Virus record (IMG/VR): IMGVR_UViG_3300007643_000003
Location: 1 to 43,819 of that record
Direction: 5' to 3' (one strand)
DNA: 43,819 nt
Source: a virus
Taxonomy: Duplodnaviria > Caudoviricetes
The notes below the pieces were generated by a model. The model was not told the DNA's origin. It made no database searches and saw only the letters and a list, made by a program, of their open reading frames with translations. The translations under genes and the position numbers were made by a program. Shown piece after piece: positions 6,798 through 43,771 of the stretch (positions are counted from its first letter, which is position 1; each line of letters starts with the position of its first letter).

Positions 6798-7658
6798 GTG
6801 GCCACTATCAAAAAGATCAAGGCGCAGGTTTCCGTGAGTGGCTGGCTCAAACTGCACAGGCAGCTGCAGGATAATCCGCTGTGGCTCTCAGAGCCGTTCT
6901 CGCGCGGCCAAGCATGGGTGGACCTCATGATGCTGGCTAACTACAGAGATGGCTATATACGCGTGCGCGGACGGCGGGTTGATGTACAGGCGGGTTGCGT
7001 TGCAAGGTCTCAAAACACGTTGGCAACGCGCTGGCAGTGGTCGCGAGGAAAAGTGATTCGATTCCTTAAAGAATTGGAATCTGACGGACAGATAACACAG
7101 GAAACGAGTCACGACTTTAACGTTATAACTATATGTAACTACAAAGAATATCAAGACGACAGTACACGAGACGAGTCACGAGACGGTACACGGAACAGGT
7201 CACGAGGCAGTACACGAGACGGACCAGTGACGGTACACGAGACGGTACACATAAAAGAACAACAACAAGGGAAAGAAGAACAAGAAGAAAAAGAAACACC
7301 CCCATCGGCTGAAGCCATGGGAGGGGAGCTGGTTGACGATGTGGTGATTAGTTTCCCAGCCAAAGGCGGTGGCACCTCCGACATCACGACGCAGCTGATG
7401 GAGCGCTATCGCGAGAACTACCCCAACCTGGACGTGATGGCGCAGCTGCGATCAATGCGTCAGCACTTGGAGGACAATCCGCACAAGCGTCAACCGGAAT
7501 GGGGCTACAAAACGTTCATCAGCAACTGGCTGAACAATCGAGTGGGTGATATGGGTAGGGCTTCCCAAGAGATCAACACTCATGGCAATTTCACCCCTGA
7601 GCGTTACGCGATCGACGACACGGCGAGAAAGTTCACCATCGCAGGCGGTGGCCTATGA
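6798..7658 (+). CDS. Phage replication initiation protein (O-like)
   Basis: GWLKLHRQL...AWVDLMMLAN...ITICNYKEYQ N-terminal domain, internal iterons, upstream of a DnaC-like gene. Confidence 0.88.
   Translation: MATIKKIKAQVSVSGWLKLHRQLQDNPLWLSEPFSRGQAWVDLMMLANYRDGYIRVRGRRVDVQAGCVARSQNTLATRWQWSRGKVIRFLKELESDGQITQETSHDFNVITICNYKEYQDDSTRDESRDGTRNRSRGSTRDGPVTVHETVHIKEQQQGKEEQEEKETPPSAEAMGGELVDDVVISFPAKGGGTSDITTQLMERYRENYPNLDVMAQLRSMRQHLEDNPHKRQPEWGYKTFISNWLNNRVGDMGRASQEINTHGNFTPERYAIDDTARKFTIAGGGL
7161..7250 (+). repeat. Replication origin iterons
   Basis: About 7 tandem ~12-bp units (GTACACGAGACG-like) followed by an A-rich tract. Confidence 0.85.
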
Positions 7659-9104: not shown

Positions 9105-9355
9105 AAAGCGCCCACAAAAATATCAAAGAGCCCAACTGGCAATTGCTGGCATATATGGTGAGAAACCAATCAGAGCACACACAAAACGAATTGAGCAGCA
9201 CGCTTGGTGTGCCAAAACATATGATTTACAGACTCATGCGTGATGATAATTTCAGCTATCGACCAAAATGGAGTGATGGCGAGCGATTGAGACGCTACGC
9301 GCTTGAGGTACTTACAGCCGAGCAGCTAGAGCGTTGCGGGGTGCCTGTCGCATGA
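9101..9355 (+). CDS. Small HTH DNA-binding protein
   Basis: TQNELSSTLGVPKHMIYRL...PKWSDGERL. Confidence 0.7.
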   Translation: MKSAHKNIKEPNWQLLAYMVRNQSEHTQNELSSTLGVPKHMIYRLMRDDNFSYRPKWSDGERLRRYALEVLTAEQLERCGVPVA

Positions 9356-9654
9356 GAGAGCCGGATGAAACAACCTACGCACCCTCACCGATTCACAGCC
9401 CAAAACAGCGCCCCACAGGGTTACGGGTGCCCTTGTCGATGTATCGGCAAAGCAATGTCGAGATAGAGGTGCCAGAGCTCACACCACCCGGGTGTGAACC
9501 AACAACGATCAGTGCACCCACGATGTCCGATGCGTTGGCGCTAAAAGACAAAGCAATTGCACACGCTAAGCGGGCAGGCTCTCCGATTTACAGTGGTGAG
9601 AACGGCAAACAAGCTCGACGCAATTGGGCGTCCACTGGCATACCCAAGGCATGA
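9352..9654 (+). CDS. Hypothetical phage protein
   Basis: ATGA-coupled ORF. Confidence 0.65.
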   Translation: MREPDETTYAPSPIHSPKQRPTGLRVPLSMYRQSNVEIEVPELTPPGCEPTTISAPTMSDALALKDKAIAHAKRAGSPIYSGENGKQARRNWASTGIPKA

Positions 9655-10364
9655 AGCGATCCGCACTCAAACGATCTGACAAGCCTATGGCGCATGGTGG
9701 TTTGTCATCAGCCAACAACCGTGAAGTGGCGGTATGGGATGCGTTGCTCAGCATGGGATGCGCTGTCTGTCTTTTCCACTTGCGGATAGAAGACACGCCA
9801 GCGGAGATACATCACATCCTGGAAGGACAGAGGCGCATCAGCCATTCGCACGTGCTGCCCCTATGCTCGATACATCATCGTCAAGGCACTGCACAACACC
9901 CAAGCCGTCACAGCGTCAATGGATGCCACGGCGGGCTCGATATATTCGAGCGCACCTACGGCACAGAAATGGAACTGGTGCTGCGTTGTGAAGAGTGGAT
10001 CAATCAACCCTACGTGACAGGACTCCTAACCGATGAACAAGCCCCGCAAGGTGACAGTGATCATACCGATACCCCAGCCGACAGTGAACGAACTGGTGGA
10101 GTTGGCGAAGTCAGGTTGGTCGAAATATCGCCAATGGAAATGTTTAGCCGACAAGTTCGCATCCATGTCATGCACCACCGTTATCGACTCGCAGACTTTG
10201 ACAATCTCAACGCCAAAGGCGCAATTGATGGCCTCGTCCAGGCGGGCCTATTACAGAATGATTCGCCCAAATATGTTCAAGGCCCGATCCTCCACGACCA
10301 AGTCAAAGTCAAAAGCTATGACGACGAAAAAACGGTCGTCACGATTGAGGAGGTCATGAGCTGA
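9651..10364 (+). CDS. Ref-family HNH nuclease fused in frame to the catalytic C-terminal part of a RusA resolvase
   Basis: GCAVC...AEIHH...LPLCSIHHR...FERTYGTE (Ref) and ADFDNLNAKGAIDGLVQAGLLQNDS (RusA). Confidence 0.8.
   Translation: MKRSALKRSDKPMAHGGLSSANNREVAVWDALLSMGCAVCLFHLRIEDTPAEIHHILEGQRRISHSHVLPLCSIHHRQGTAQHPSRHSVNGCHGGLDIFERTYGTEMELVLRCEEWINQPYVTGLLTDEQAPQGDSDHTDTPADSERTGGVGEVRLVEISPMEMFSRQVRIHVMHHRYRLADFDNLNAKGAIDGLVQAGLLQNDSPKYVQGPILHDQVKVKSYDDEKTVVTIEEVMS
10033..10359 (+). CDS. Nested out-of-frame ORF resembling the RusA N-terminal part
   Basis: CAGGA RBS plus ATG; KVTVIIPIPQPTVNEL...WSKYRQWK matches the RusA beta1-PxxN-helix pattern. Confidence 0.55.
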   Translation: MNKPRKVTVIIPIPQPTVNELVELAKSGWSKYRQWKCLADKFASMSCTTVIDSQTLTISTPKAQLMASSRRAYYRMIRPNMFKARSSTTKSKSKAMTTKKRSSRLRRS

Positions 10365-10765
10365 TGGCAGATATTGGCCGTTCTACAGCAGCACACGCCG
10401 AAGGACAGGCCGATACTCACGCCATGGTGGCTCGGCTTGAGAATTGGGGTTCCTGGCAGAGATCTCTTCCAGCCGACGGTCCAGGACTCTTCCCCAGATC
10501 ACCGATGTTCAAAGATGTGGTTGATCGGTACCGCGAGACGTTCGCACCATCACCATACGATTGTGAGGATGGTGAGCAGATTGAGGCGCTAGTGGCACGT
10601 GTTCTGAGTATCCGTCAGATACTGTGTCTGCAGCTGCGCTTTATCATTCGGGTATCGTCGCGGCGAGCAGCTGGCATCATCAGTATTCAGGGCCACCCGT
10701 GCACCCACACGACGTACCGGGTATGGGTTGAGGATGCTATTTACAAATTATCGACGGAGGCTTGA
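10364..10765 (+). CDS. Q-like late antiterminator
   Basis: ARLENWGSW N-terminal motif, C-terminal HTH, directly upstream of a promoter-terminator pair and the lysis genes. Confidence 0.75.
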   Translation: MADIGRSTAAHAEGQADTHAMVARLENWGSWQRSLPADGPGLFPRSPMFKDVVDRYRETFAPSPYDCEDGEQIEALVARVLSIRQILCLQLRFIIRVSSRRAAGIISIQGHPCTHTTYRVWVEDAIYKLSTEA

Positions 10766-10796
10766 CAACCCTTACAACCTTACAGCACATTACAGC
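10762..10796 (+). promoter_or_regulatory. PR'-like late promoter with TTACA direct repeats (possible Q-binding element)
   Basis: TTGACA at 10762, then CTTACAAC/CTTACAGC/ATTACAGC; the -10 is weak. Confidence 0.5.
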
Positions 10797-10858
10797 AGTG
10801 ATTGTAGTTGCCACTGGCAATTATCAATTTGTTCCAACCTCCTCCAAGTGGTACTTCC

Positions 10859-10896
10859 AAAACCCTGACCAGAGATGGCCGGGGTTTTGGCGTTTT
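10859..10896 (+). terminator. tR'-like intrinsic terminator
   Basis: AAAACCCTGACCA-GAGA-TGGCCGGGGTTTT hairpin followed by a T-rich run. Confidence 0.75.
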
Positions 10897-11015
10897 GGGG
10901 TATGCAAACTTACTCGGATCAATACGGGCGCGTAGTGATCTCCATTCACCGCTGTATCGGGACTGATTCAGCCATAACACCGCAGGACCCATACACGAGA
11001 TGAGCAATAAAACAC

Positions 11016-12274: not shown

Positions 12275-12648
12275 CCAGGTACATCAGTCGTTACGAGGTT
12301 AGATGTCCTTGTGGGTGCGGTAGAGATTCGATTGACCATGAAACGCTCATCCATCTGGACTACGAACGACATCACTGGGGCTTACCGGCGATTATCACAT
12401 CTGGTTTTCGGTGTGAAGCACACAATCGCAAAGTGGGTGGATCAGATGAGAGTCAGCATATGTTCGCCAGGGCTATCGATTCGGTGATCCAGGGCATAAC
12501 GCTAAGACAGCGTTATGACTATTACCAGTCAAGATGGCCCAATCGTTACGGCATTGGCGTTTATCCATCGGACAACATGCTGCATTTTGATACGCGCACC
12601 GATGGCCCAGCCCGGTGGGTTAAAAAAGGGGATAAATTCGAGCTATGA
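12262..12648 (+). CDS. Endolysin, peptidase M15A family; non-ATG start
   Basis: Frame is open upstream of the tracked 12433 start: IGDLTRYISRYEVRCPCGCG...ITSGFRCEAHNRKVGGSDESQH...AID...GIGVY...LHFDTR. Confidence 0.88.
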   Translation: MGDLTRYISRYEVRCPCGCGRDSIDHETLIHLDYERHHWGLPAIITSGFRCEAHNRKVGGSDESQHMFARAIDSVIQGITLRQRYDYYQSRWPNRYGIGVYPSDNMLHFDTRTDGPARWVKKGDKFEL

Positions 12649-13172: not shown

Positions 13173-13492
13173 ACAACGAGGATCTGGATATCGACAACTT
13201 CAACGTGCCGACATTGAGCACCGACGATCCGATTAAACGAATTCGGGATAACAGTAAAAACCTAACATCAGCAATTCAGGCAGCACAAACAACCGTTAGA
13301 ACAATGAGACATCGACACATGTCACACAACTACGACAAGGATCGAATAGAGCGCGAGATGAAGAGCATTCACCAGAGAGTGGTCGAGGCTTATCACCACT
13401 ATGTGGCACCTGAGATCAGGGTGAGGTTTTGGTTGGCGGTTGTATTTTGCGTTGTCGTGCTATTTGTGGGTGTCTCTGGAGTGGGTAGCTGA
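13169..13492 (+). CDS. Coiled-coil + C-terminal TM protein
   Basis: FWLAVVFCVVVLFVGV C-terminal anchor. Confidence 0.65.
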   Translation: MNNEDLDIDNFNVPTLSTDDPIKRIRDNSKNLTSAIQAAQTTVRTMRHRHMSHNYDKDRIEREMKSIHQRVVEAYHHYVAPEIRVRFWLAVVFCVVVLFVGVSGVGS

Positions 13493-13911
13493 TGCCAGCA
13501 AGAAGGCCGTCGACGATAGTCCATCGTGATTATCGTGGGTCAGTCGAGCAAACAAACGGGATGCCTCCGGCTGACGATCAAGAGATATCATCCGGAGAGT
13601 TCAACGATCACACCGATACGCTAACCGATCATGCCGAGAGGCTTGATGCCATGGGCGGGGGTGCACCCGGTGACGCTCTCGATTTGTCAGATTTGGTCAG
13701 AGCGTCCTTGCGATGGGAAGCAGGCTATAACAACACGCGCACCTGGGTGCTTGATGGAAACGGTGTGCCGACAAGTTTTCATGCAGCGACCGGATCAACA
13801 GCTGAGCAGCGAGGGGCGACTGTTCCAGGTAGCAACAGTTCGGTATGGGCGCAAACACCGATCAATAGCGAACATGATTTTCTCGCGGTCTATAACGCCG
13901 CTAAAACCTAG
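13492..13911 (+). CDS. Putative fibre adaptor protein
   Basis: C-terminal DFLAVYNAAK matches DFVATYTAAK of the next gene. Confidence 0.65.
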   Translation: MPARRPSTIVHRDYRGSVEQTNGMPPADDQEISSGEFNDHTDTLTDHAERLDAMGGGAPGDALDLSDLVRASLRWEAGYNNTRTWVLDGNGVPTSFHAATGSTAEQRGATVPGSNSSVWAQTPINSEHDFLAVYNAAKT

Positions 13912-13926
13912 TAGGAGCACTATTCA

Positions 13927-14367
13927 ATGTCACTAGAAACACGGGTTGATGCGTTAGCGACAGCTATCGCTACCGACGTCAAAACGCTGTTGGCTCAGGA
14001 CGGTGATCTCACAGCGCTGACGACAACGGCCAAGACCAGCTTAGTTGCAGCGATTAATGAGCTGGCTGGTATCGCTAATGCGGCCGCAGGTATCAATGAT
14101 GGTGCAACAGCGTCTGGCAGCACTTGGTCCTCGAGCAAGATCTCAACAGAGTTAGCCAATGCCAGCGCCGCGTTGGTAGATAGCTCACCCGATCTACTGA
14201 ACACGCTCAATGAACTGGCAGCTGCATTGGAAGATAACCCTGATGTGATTGCTTCTCTGCGCACGTTGATCACTAACAATGCCACTGCAATCAGCACATT
14301 AGCGACTAATGTGGGCGATACAGACAAAGATTTTGTGGCGACCTATACAGCCGCTAAAGCAGCGTAA
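13927..14367 (+). CDS. Trimeric coiled-coil fibre shaft protein
   Basis: LTTTAKTSLVAAINEL, TWSSSKI and LNTLNELAAAL phage-fibre motifs; AGGAG RBS. Confidence 0.8.
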   Translation: MSLETRVDALATAIATDVKTLLAQDGDLTALTTTAKTSLVAAINELAGIANAAAGINDGATASGSTWSSSKISTELANASAALVDSSPDLLNTLNELAAALEDNPDVIASLRTLITNNATAISTLATNVGDTDKDFVATYTAAKAA

Positions 14368-14373
14368 TCAGTC

Positions 14374-16170
14374 ATGACTCTTGAAGCTCGAGTTGATCTG
14401 CTGGCAGCGGCCATTGGTGCTGATCTCGGTGCGCTTGAAGCAAAGATCCATGTGCCGCTTGTACTGCCCAGCGATCCTCAATTTGGTGGTGTGGGCGATG
14501 CTGCCTATAACGACACGGGTGATAGAACAACGTCAAATTGGACGGGTACCGATGACACAGCCGCTGTAAACGCCGCTTACGCTTTTGCTGAAGCTAACGG
14601 CCTTTGCGTGTTCTTTGACAGGCTTTACAAGTGCGATGGTGTTATTAACATCAAATCGGGTGCTCAATTCTATGGTGCTGGTCCCAACACTGGCATAGCG
14701 ATGACTTGGGTTGATTACCTCTCGAGCACAGAGGTCGCCAAGAAGACGCTATTCGCGCCTGAAACTGTGGCGTATGTTGATGGTGTTCCCAATTTTCACA
14801 ATGCCAAGTTTGTGAATTTTGCCGTTTACGGGCCCTGGTATGAGAACTGGCACCCTTGGGGGAAAAATGCAGACAATACCGGGCGCAGTATCTCCTATGT
14901 ATTGCCACAGCGAAGCACGGGCATTCACGTCAAGGATATGCATTTTCAAGGGGTCGGTTGCGTCACAATCGGCGCTCACGTGGACAGCTGTTTCGAAAAT
15001 AACAGGATTAAACGAACAGGGCGTGATGGCATCACGGTTGGGTTTAGTTCGGTCGATCATGATCATAGTCGGCCTACTTACGTTTATATCCTGGGAAATG
15101 TTCTTGAAGAGACAGGTGATGACTCTATTTCTGTTCAGGGCCTTAACACTGCAATGCCCCCGTTCGTGGCGGCAACGACCACAGCAGGTTCACGAACAAT
15201 CACGTTGGCATCTGACCCCGGTGATATTGTAGGGCAGGGTGTATGTATCAAGGGTGCGGGACAAAACAGCACCAAACTAGGCGCAAAGGTTGTCAGTCAA
15301 ACCGGTGTGACGATTGAGATTGATAGGCCTGCACCGCTGACGGTGACTGATGATATGTCATACGACTGCTATGCCCATGGCAAGATCATGATCGCCGCGA
15401 ACAAGGTTAACAACAAAGGCGATGGCAGGGGCATTATGGTGCGTAATCTTGCCGATATGTCCGTACTCAGCAACACAGTTGACAACGCTGCTATTCACGA
15501 TATCTATGTGGGCTCTGATAGCTTTGGTAGCGTCTCATTCGATTCGGTGATCGATGATAATGATTGCAACTGGGCAGGCAGTCATTCTCTGAGCACGGTC
15601 ATTGCAGACGGTATCAATCTGAGCTTTGTCAGTGAGGTCAGAGTGACCAATAATCGCTGCCGAAATAATTCATATGCAGGAATTTACGCAACGCTAGCCA
15701 ACGCTTGCGTGATTAAAGGCAATGAGGCCAAGTACAACAATAAGAACGCCACATCTGCATCAGCGGCACAGATTGAGGTTAAATCATCGGGCGGTGTTCA
15801 AGTGCTATCCAATGACGCCATTGGCGGTTACAAGAACGGCGTGCTGATCAAGGATACAGAAGGCACTGTATTTATAGGCGGCAGGCTTGAGCGGCACGTC
15901 AATGGTGCTGTATACGGCGCATACATAGCGGGTAACACCGACCTGCGTATGGATGATTTAACGATCACAAAGAACTATCGATCAATGAATATTGCATCGG
16001 ACAACGTGAGTATCTCTCGTGGTACACGTGGTTCATCTTATGGCAATACAAACAATAACGCGCCATACATCAACCCGAGCTTAGCTGCGAACGTCATTAC
16101 AAATGAAAGTATGTACTTTGATCCAGAGGCGCGAGGCTTTGCCGCGCTGCAGTCAGTGGCCTTACCATGA
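14374..16170 (+). CDS. Pectate-lyase-like beta-helix depolymerase/spike
   Basis: FGGVGD...TDDTAAVNAA cap motif, TGDDSISV, many N-x-I/V beta-helix repeats. Confidence 0.85.
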   Translation: MTLEARVDLLAAAIGADLGALEAKIHVPLVLPSDPQFGGVGDAAYNDTGDRTTSNWTGTDDTAAVNAAYAFAEANGLCVFFDRLYKCDGVINIKSGAQFYGAGPNTGIAMTWVDYLSSTEVAKKTLFAPETVAYVDGVPNFHNAKFVNFAVYGPWYENWHPWGKNADNTGRSISYVLPQRSTGIHVKDMHFQGVGCVTIGAHVDSCFENNRIKRTGRDGITVGFSSVDHDHSRPTYVYILGNVLEETGDDSISVQGLNTAMPPFVAATTTAGSRTITLASDPGDIVGQGVCIKGAGQNSTKLGAKVVSQTGVTIEIDRPAPLTVTDDMSYDCYAHGKIMIAANKVNNKGDGRGIMVRNLADMSVLSNTVDNAAIHDIYVGSDSFGSVSFDSVIDDNDCNWAGSHSLSTVIADGINLSFVSEVRVTNNRCRNNSYAGIYATLANACVIKGNEAKYNNKNATSASAAQIEVKSSGGVQVLSNDAIGGYKNGVLIKDTEGTVFIGGRLERHVNGAVYGAYIAGNTDLRMDDLTITKNYRSMNIASDNVSISRGTRGSSYGNTNNNAPYINPSLAANVITNESMYFDPEARGFAALQSVALP

Positions 16171-41252: not shown

Positions 41253-41870
41253 ATGACGAAGAAAACGACCACAGAAGACGATTTCACGCTTGTTGGGTAT
41301 GCAAGGGTCTCCACTGTCGATCAGTCCGTGCAGATGCAGATAGACGCGCTACTGAAGTACGGTGTTGAAGAACACAACATCTACAGTGAGAGCATGTCCG
41401 GCGTGAAAAAGAATCGGCCCAAGTTGGAAGCTGCAATGCGCCAGCTACGTGAGGGCGACACGCTGGTTGTGTGGAAGCTGGATCGTGTTGCACGTTCGAT
41501 CAATAACTTGCTTGAAATAATGAAAGACCTGGAGGATCGCGGTATCAAGTTTCGCTCTATCACTGAAGGCGTAGAGACAGAGACACCGACCGGCAAAATG
41601 ATACTTGTGGTAATGGGTGCGCTTGCTCAATTTGAGCGTGATCTGATTGTTGAGCGCACACGCGCAGGTGTAAAGGCAGCGCAGGAGAGAGGTGTTCAGT
41701 TCGGTGCAAAGCACAAGCTGATGCCCTCGGAAATGCCGAAAGTATGGAAGGCAGTAAACGAACAGGGTAAGACGATGAAGAGCCAAGCCGAGAAGTACGG
41801 TGTGGTCCCTGCAACAATCAAACGGCGACTTGATGAATATGAGAAGTCGCTGATAGCCAACAAGAAATAA
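41253..41870 (+). CDS. Small serine recombinase (resolvase/invertase family)
   Basis: GYARVSTVDQ, RPKL, GDTLVVWKLDRVARS, AQFERDLIVERTRAG, C-terminal HTH. Confidence 0.95.
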   Translation: MTKKTTTEDDFTLVGYARVSTVDQSVQMQIDALLKYGVEEHNIYSESMSGVKKNRPKLEAAMRQLREGDTLVVWKLDRVARSINNLLEIMKDLEDRGIKFRSITEGVETETPTGKMILVVMGALAQFERDLIVERTRAGVKAAQERGVQFGAKHKLMPSEMPKVWKAVNEQGKTMKSQAEKYGVVPATIKRRLDEYEKSLIANKK

Positions 41871-43291: not shown

Positions 43292-43450
43292 ATGTCACAA
43301 CCACACGGCGACAATGCCCTGAAAGAAACAGCGGCCATGACAGACATTGTTTCTGCATTACAAGGTCTCGACCCTGAAAGTGTTCGGCGTGTACTCGCAT
43401 GGGCAGTTGATGTGTTTGTCTCACAGCCAGATACAAAGGAGGATTCTTGA
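43292..43450 (+). CDS. Small hypothetical protein (not in the ORF track)
   Basis: GGAG RBS; 52 aa MSQPHG...ALQGLDPESVRRVLAWA. Confidence 0.65.
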   Translation: MSQPHGDNALKETAAMTDIVSALQGLDPESVRRVLAWAVDVFVSQPDTKEDS

Positions 43451-43590
43451 TTGGTGAGCACCGTTACGGATTCAGCCTAGCGAACTGGAACGGGAGGTAG
43501 CGCAAACCTCTGATCCGTTAAATGACCGCGAAATTCCTCGTTATCGGCCAGCCAAACGGTGCGGAAACGGTAACGGTGCTCACTAATCAA
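43447..43590 (+). ncRNA. Putative structured RNA closed by a 21-bp stem
   Basis: TTGATTGGTGAGCACCGTTAC / GTAACGGTGCTCACTAATCAA (one G-U pair on the + strand) with internal hairpins. Confidence 0.65.
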
Positions 43591-43616
43591 ATATCTAAAA
43601 AGGAGAGCTAAAACCA

Positions 43617-43720: not shown

Positions 43721-43771
43721 CTTTTAATCAGGTGGTCGCTGGTTCGAACCCAGCACGCCCCACCATTGAAA
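43721..43771 (+). repeat. attR core (duplicated tRNA-Lys 3' part)
   Basis: 51-bp identity with 49..99. Confidence 0.97.

Follow-up and report, generated by a model that had tools for sequence, protein, structure and literature searches.

Two overlapping reading frames of a lambda-like prophage as likely halves of a RusA-type Holliday-junction nuclease, one of them fused to a Ref-like domain

Closest described systems and layout of the locus

E. coli RusA (PDB 1Q8R, 2H8C, and 2H8E; PF05866; phrog_34 and phrog_1682) is a Holliday-junction nuclease that consists of one 120-aa chain, and its gene occupies a lambdoid position between the replication and lysis genes. According to the structural account in PMC1636454, the RusA monomer has four strands and two helices, and its catalytic residues are D70, D72, K76, and D90/D91. 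The locus described here occupies the same position, and its C-terminal half shares with RusA the catalytic residues and, by Foldseek, the fold. However, instead of one chain there are two open reading frames (ORFs), which use different frames of the same bases, and there are additions to both parts: an extra helix and a basic tail on the N-terminal part, and a Ref-like nuclease domain on the C-terminal part.

Rz/Rz1 spanin genes are known in embedded, overlapped, and separated layouts, and one separated pair is described with a homing endonuclease gene between its members (PMC6139136). In lambda, Rz and Rz1 are two subunits of one complex encoded in overlapping frames, and this is the layout nearest to that of our locus, while the separated pair with the intervening endonuclease gene resembles two relatives of the locus, L022 and L058 (PMC6139136). 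As for Rz/Rz1, both frames are under selection here and separated versions occur in relatives. In contrast, spanin subunits are distinct membrane proteins (PMC6139136), whereas the products considered here would be parts of one small enzyme domain that has a one-chain homologue. The fragmented nrdA of a phage ribonucleotide reductase is a further comparison, an enzyme built, as here, from separately encoded fragments of a once-single gene (PMC3045599).

P1 Ref is a RecA-dependent HNH nuclease with a 76-aa basic N-terminal region that is needed for DNA binding (PMC4330346). The PF16786 domain with its Cys and His motifs is common to P1 Ref and our locus; however, where P1 Ref has the 76-aa basic region (PMC4330346), our protein has about 25 aa before the domain, and it has a RusA half at its C-terminus. 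An engineered inactive RusA-FokI joins a catalytically dead RusA to a nuclease (PMC12120656), as one relative of the locus, L190, appears to do naturally; the engineered protein differs in being artificial, in using a one-chain RusA, and in carrying another nuclease (PMC12120656). Our search of a mostly open-access literature listed no description of a split or overlapping RusA.

The stretch of DNA analysed, 43,819 nucleotides in length and called the window below, is a complete lambda-like prophage with integrase, repressor, replication, lysis, head, and tail genes. Its attachment sites are two identical 51-bp repeats in direct orientation (49-99 and 43721-43771), which have the sequence of the 3' part of a tRNA-Lys gene (18-93). 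The locus lies on the + strand, as do all of its features given below, between the replication genes and a possible antiterminator gene. The latter (10364..10765) begins in a TGATG overlap with the stop codon of the locus, and its antiterminator-Q-like assignment is a lead only, taken from a DUF6362 cluster and from a cluster with PF06530 on 27% of its members.

The longer ORF (9651..10364, 237 aa), whose start overlaps the stop of an upstream ORF at 9334-9654, is a fusion of a Ref-like domain (9651..10031), an acidic linker (10032..10133), and the catalytic half of RusA, or C half (10134..10364), for which three strands and one helix are predicted. The linker, weakly conserved and with 9 acidic and 2 basic residues in 34 aa, is written on bases 10032..10133 that double in the +1 frame as head codons of a second ORF (10033..10359, 108 aa), the N chain. 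The N-chain head (10033..10173) comprises a first strand, a P-T-x-N motif, and a long helix, and is the probable counterpart of strand 1 and helix 1 of RusA. Its tail carries a Y..MIRP motif on a predicted helix (10249..10269), which overprints the GLLxxDS codons of the C half, and ends in a basic, probably disordered stretch (10270..10356) with 11 Lys or Arg and no acidic residue in 29 aa and with low pLDDT. The Y..MIRP motif has no counterpart in one-frame RusA and is retained in de-overlapped N genes. A Shine-Dalgarno-like AGGA site at 10019..10022, within the last Ref codons, stands 10 nt 5' of ATG 10033; the site and its spacing are identical in two related contigs, L189 and L190. An ATG at 10134..10136 is a possible internal start for a free C chain.

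The ORF map bore out the first-pass annotation, made from the sequence alone, in that both frames are open across 10033..10359; the third frame has many stops across the locus. The same annotation had placed a helix of one frame and a strand of the other on shared bases, and this is also the case, since residues 36-45 of the N frame correspond to 10138-10167 and the C-frame strand corresponds to 10143-10169. When the C-frame codons of the window were reshuffled synonymously, the +1 frame stayed open in 2-7% of the reshuffles (range by codon table), which places the open +1 frame beyond chance.

We consider it likely, from sequence and predicted structure, that the two ORFs yield separate chains that assemble into a RusA-type Holliday-junction nuclease. 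Both frames would be translated from their own starts, at 9651 and 10033, and the strand and helix of the N chain would dock on the three-stranded C half. Dimerisation as in RusA would then give an assembly of two N and two C chains, which would cleave Holliday junctions in phage replication or recombination. More speculatively, through the fusion the junction-binding dimer may carry a Ref nuclease that depends on RecA, and the N chain's basic tail, perhaps together with the RusA fold, might replace the long basic N-terminal DNA anchor of P1 Ref, which is absent here. If the two-chain reading is true, the locus is a natural case in which a single DNA segment, read in two frames, supplies one enzyme domain. 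With one-frame, overlapped, separated, and fused states available, the origin of overlapping genes and of split enzymes becomes testable, by a simple assay, on a locus of 330 bases.

The RusA half and its missing N-terminal part

The C half was assigned from profile matches and from a structural model. The 237-aa ORF matched RusA-like phrog_34 at aa 169-235 (E 4.3e-7), and PHROG RusA-like matches were found at E 3e-8. A profile of 69 C halves aligned to residues 56-95 of E. coli RusA (E 0.02), and this alignment placed the equivalents of D70, D72, N73, K76, D80, and D91 at residues 182, 184, 185, 189, 193, and 204 of the window's protein, that is, at codons beginning at 10194, 10200, 10203, 10215, 10227, and 10260. 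The position of D90 is occupied by Asn in the window. RusA has an Arg-rich DNA-binding segment before D70; here too Arg residues precede the first catalytic Asp, and R16 is nearly invariant in the 69 C-half rows. Thus the phrog_34 match and the catalytic residue equivalents uphold the earlier reading that the Ref frame encodes the catalytic part of RusA. PF05866 gave no match above its cut-off for the window, and L189 reached only 14.7 of the 22.8 bits needed. Rows with PPR repeats among the search results were set aside as sums of weak repeats.

The AlphaFold model of the C half (pLDDT 91) has three strands and one helix. When this model was used as a Foldseek query, the best seven rows were all E. 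coli RusA (best E 0.011, probability 1.00), although the Foldseek and PDB sequence matches of the C half to RusA all lie above E 0.001. Compared with the four strands and two helices of RusA, the model indicates that one strand and one helix are absent from the C chain; the remainder of the domain, which in RusA belongs to the same chain, probably sits in the other frame here. Resemblance to the C half extends to at least 402 protein clusters. Nothing was found when viral contigs were scanned with the C half or the fusion protein P0038 as a single-protein query or with a second DNA pattern; one viral-contig scan gave ten Ref-only loci (L001-L010), and one further scan gave three one-frame RusAs and one false match.

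The first-pass annotation had also read a RusA-like N-terminus from ATG 10033, and this gained moderate support from family profiles and none from library searches. ORF 10033 had no match in Pfam, PHROG, PDB sequences, the word-index search, or phage records, no Atlas match at 0.9 or above, and none among viral folds, and thus the library profiles show no RusA similarity, an outcome that the first-pass annotation had named as one that would refute its reading. In contrast, a profile of 68 relatives, built with the window left out, found ORF 10033 over its full length at E 1.2e-17, a value partly owed to the overlap region. The head was hence tested alone, and it was the best among 1287 six-frame segments at E 0.009, the head of the window being divergent. 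The head of the N family aligned with the N-terminus of one-frame RusAs with an hhalign probability of 65% (E 6e-5), which is moderate support. N19 is invariant among relatives, and in the model of the N chain (pLDDT 69) an extended N-terminus leads into helices at 18-47, with one more helix at 63-83. None of the best 150 C-half representatives carried an N head in the same chain, a count of low power because the N-head profile scores one-frame RusAs at 5.3 bits or less.

Relatives, selection on both frames, and alternative readings

The junction was crossed without a gap by contigs from two studies. Contig X1 (713 nt) has 7 differences from the window, X4 spans the junction with 9314 nt, and X3 has 64 differences over 9678-10900 with one gap far downstream of the junction. 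Alleles differ among the contigs, which means that more than one genome is represented, and one run may be the source sample. Close relatives come from macroalgae and oyster metagenomes of two studies, and no RNA dataset is among those listed as containing the stretch. Loose contig ends that could be read as a lost first strand instead fit a short N-terminal insertion like that of L189.

The first distant match was an archaeal virus record, BK063671.1 (L011; host given as Methanomicrobiales), which has the same overlap at 48% identity and lacks Ref. Gene callers miss one half of such loci: the annotation of BK063671.1 holds the +1 ORF only, as hypothetical, and the window's entry in the protein collection is the fusion only. 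From 173 viral-contig loci (L016-L188) and the window, we obtained 92 distinct loci, which comprised 66 two-frame loci (window included), 3 separated, and 23 one-frame. The register between the two frames is nearly fixed, at -83 nt in most loci, -89 in a few, and -92 in the window, and relatives at 31-51% identity share it. In all 66 two-frame loci (one cut by a contig end), the +1 frame continues without a stop for at least 178 nt past the point where the C half begins. Of the loci fetched, 48 came from an N-chain query; the +1 frame is likewise open in each of the 26 distinct loci that only C-frame patterns had turned up. Dual-frame openness and overlap, whose conservation the first-pass annotation had proposed as a check, are thus conserved in 65 further distinct loci, with selection on each frame.

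For the selection test, C-frame residues were held and synonymous codons were reshuffled; 56 of the 66 two-frame loci were scored, and 10 missed the anchor pattern. The +1 frame was open in all 56 (5.3 expected) and kept Tyr in 56 (15.9), Ile in 55 (34.4), Arg in 45 (8.8), and Pro in 47 (10.5), counts that come from loci of shared ancestry and are not independent trials. One-frame controls were at expectation, with 22 of 23 scored (open in 3 compared to 2.1 expected, and Tyr in 3 compared to 4.5). The tail of the N chain is therefore itself under selection, a point missing from the first-pass annotation. On the other side of the overlap, 59 of 66 loci have an open C frame over the N head compared to 29.3 expected, and the third frame is open there in 7 compared to 10.7. 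A frameshift would not need an open C frame there, so this count favors two chains.

Close variants, taken from 40 of the 169 matches listed, divided along the same lines. Between 10062 and 10128, 6 of 9 variants of contig X2 and 6 of 6 of contig X5 (depth 4.5; two changes inside a compensated gap pair omitted) were silent in the N frame, and all of them changed the linker in the C frame. Between 10183 and 10273, 5 of 7 variants were silent in the C frame, and all 7 changed the N frame, none of them at Y73 or M76-P79. Likewise, over 28 positions of the head region, L189 and the window share 12 residues when the N frame is read and 6 when the C frame is read. Contig X5 has at 10107-10113 a 1-base insertion compensated by a deletion six bases apart, which shifts two codons in both frames.

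Three relatives carry the halves as separate genes. In L022 and L058, about 0.5 and 1 kb separate the N gene from the C gene, an HNH gene lies in that interval, and the C gene has an ATG of its own; L058 has a second ORF besides the HNH gene between the halves. In L158 the two genes are in tandem, and the C gene retains a relic of the +1 tail. The fragments of phage nrdA, which reportedly follow one another without overlap on either side of a mobile endonuclease gene, resemble only these three loci. In the N genes of all three, the linker is shortened and the Tyr..I-R-P motif and basic tail are kept, which indicates that the tail belongs to the protein and is not a mere shadow of the other frame. 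A tree built from 102 C-half rows over 76 columns, with 55 of its 99 inner branches open, places the separated and fused forms among the overlapped ones and fixes no order of events. With both frames selected and the separated genes in hand, a split enzyme assembled from two overprinted polypeptides is the option that we favor among those offered by the first-pass annotation.

The data could be read in other ways. A programmed -1 frameshift that joins the N head to the C half as one shortened RusA chain accords with the frame relation, which is exactly -1, and with the X-XXY-YYZ heptamers found within the interval in 9 of 66 two-frame loci. However, these heptamers stand at five different offsets and are not conserved, no slippery heptamer is present in the window or in 56 other loci, where the interval DNA is variable, and pseudoknot-free folding of the RNA at 10100-10220 gave structure no stronger than that of shuffles (z 0.05). 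The first-pass annotation had noted that such a shift would delete an element, and the spacing agrees: the conserved Asn precedes the IDG aspartate by 64 residues in one-frame RusAs (median, 22 of 26 scored) compared to 47 codons in the window and, for the 63 of 66 two-frame loci scored, a median of 44, so that the product would be short by about 17-20 residues of helix and linker. A frameshift also leaves the selected +1 tail, the open upstream C frame, and the separated genes unexplained, and a single one could not bridge the HNH gene that parts the halves of L022 and L058. We regard it as very unlikely. A recoding event that re-reads the shared bases, by a backward jump or transcript realignment, would give one full-length chain with the usual 64-residue spacing; this is more improbable still, since the halves occur as separate genes in three relatives, the overlap site lacks any repeat of 18 nt or more, and no conserved signal was found. 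To our knowledge, no mechanism re-reads bases as such recoding would need. The reading that a recent deletion, ongoing decay, or misassembly produced the layout was rejected and retains hardly any probability: the window is a prophage, where decay is common, and L190 has lost three catalytic residues, but independent contigs of two studies agree, the register is kept across the divergent loci, and both frames are selected.

It is also unlikely that the +1 protein is a regulator or partner (an inhibitor, a chaperone, or a DNA anchor) and not half of the fold, with the C half acting alone or with another protein. The confident model of the C half by itself, the lack of a library match for the N chain, and a tail that has no equivalent in RusA are all in keeping with such a role. 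Against it, the N head aligns with exactly the part that is missing from the C half, and wherever a C half of the 92 distinct loci lacked an N part of its own, an N gene was present in it or nearby. A last alternative concerns the Ref domain only and is compatible with two chains. The fusion may be incidental, with the working C chain starting at ATG 10134 and the in-frame Ref resulting from a lost stop; we hold this to be possible, although doubtful. Met, Val, or Leu occupies the position of ATG 10134 in all but one of 7 fusion proteins, the codon there is GTG in L189, the ATG is unchanged in the close variants listed, and crude anti-Shine-Dalgarno pairing there is -5.0 kcal/mol. The C chains of L029 and L080 begin at this position, and in L175 an unfused Ref lies just upstream of the C half. 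On the other hand, the frame from Ref to the C half is open in 7 of 7 aligned fusion proteins, which share 44-97% identity and have linkers of differing length. The linker of L190 has no ATG, GTG, or TTG, the NTG codon at 10134 may be forced by Trp or Cys of the +1 frame, and a predicted local hairpin covers the site, although shuffled sequences fold as strongly (z 0.05). Alongside the fusion, initiation at ATG 10134 may yield some free C chain, and such a start could make the fusion dispensable.

The Ref domain, its fusion, and other features of the prophage

The Ref-like domain matched PF16786 at aa 27-116 (E 1.2e-14; 54.7 bits compared to a cut-off of 26.9) and has CxxC, HH, and CxxHH motifs as its Cys/His metal-binding motifs. 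Only about 25 aa precede the domain, and a long basic N-terminal DNA-binding region was not found in them. PF16786 is joined to a C half also in P0002, P0038, P0027, and P0147, and in partial form in P0057 and P0105; identities of the fusions to the window are 44-59%, and 97% for P0002. The contigs L189 and L190, deposited as Robiginitomaculum sp. MAG (a putative host), have the fusion and an intact +1 ORF at the DNA level. Judged from these sequences, the Ref fusion is a lineage trait. Most two-frame relatives are without it, and the split enzyme therefore does not need it. Because the C frame usually runs open as far as the preceding gene, the loss of one stop would suffice to make such a fusion. 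As an unfused neighbor, YbcO exceeded its cut-off in 7 of the 63 segments scanned upstream. At their N-terminus, C halves are also joined to YbcO (P0019), to DUF968 (P0029), to a Cys/His domain that had no Pfam match (P0111), and to another domain (P0032).

In the fusion of L190 (L190:1223-2451), to which P0147 is almost identical, the equivalents of D70, K76, and D91 and the invariant Asn of the N chain are changed; the C half otherwise retains its near-invariant positions, and both frames remain open. The L190 fusion is followed, with an overlapping start, by a VRR-NUC-like gene (E 5.7e-5, just under the cut-off). We read this pattern as a probable loss of catalysis with the fold kept, although the changes may be decay in progress. 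It hints that the RusA fold may serve as a DNA-binding module for Ref, and the Ref fusion and the degenerate branch together suggest a natural junction-guided nuclease. A broader scenario, which we offer tentatively and do not hold as probable, is that an enzyme domain was split, that its halves collapsed onto the same DNA, and that a new essential helix arose by overprinting. The Ref fusion would then give a machine of two chains and two nucleases, its RusA fold guiding a nuclease that depends on RecA to branched DNA, and the L190 branch would be a pure targeting module, with the neighboring VRR-NUC nuclease resolving the junction.

Several other features of the prophage were recorded. Three imperfect 29-nt repeats at 7170-7257, inside a replication gene, are possibly origin iterons. 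At 12311-12648, an endolysin-like match to phrog_894 covers a 71-aa ORF only, with the C-terminal part of the profile, and a short ORF lies upstream in another frame (12311-12487); the gene may be broken or frameshifted. Tail-fibre-like and beta-helix-like genes (the latter by eye) stand at 13492-16170 between the lysis and terminase genes, which is unusual for a lambdoid genome. A DNA invertase gene follows the large tail-region genes at 41253-41870, and a 35-nt inverted repeat is present near the right end at 43442-43595.
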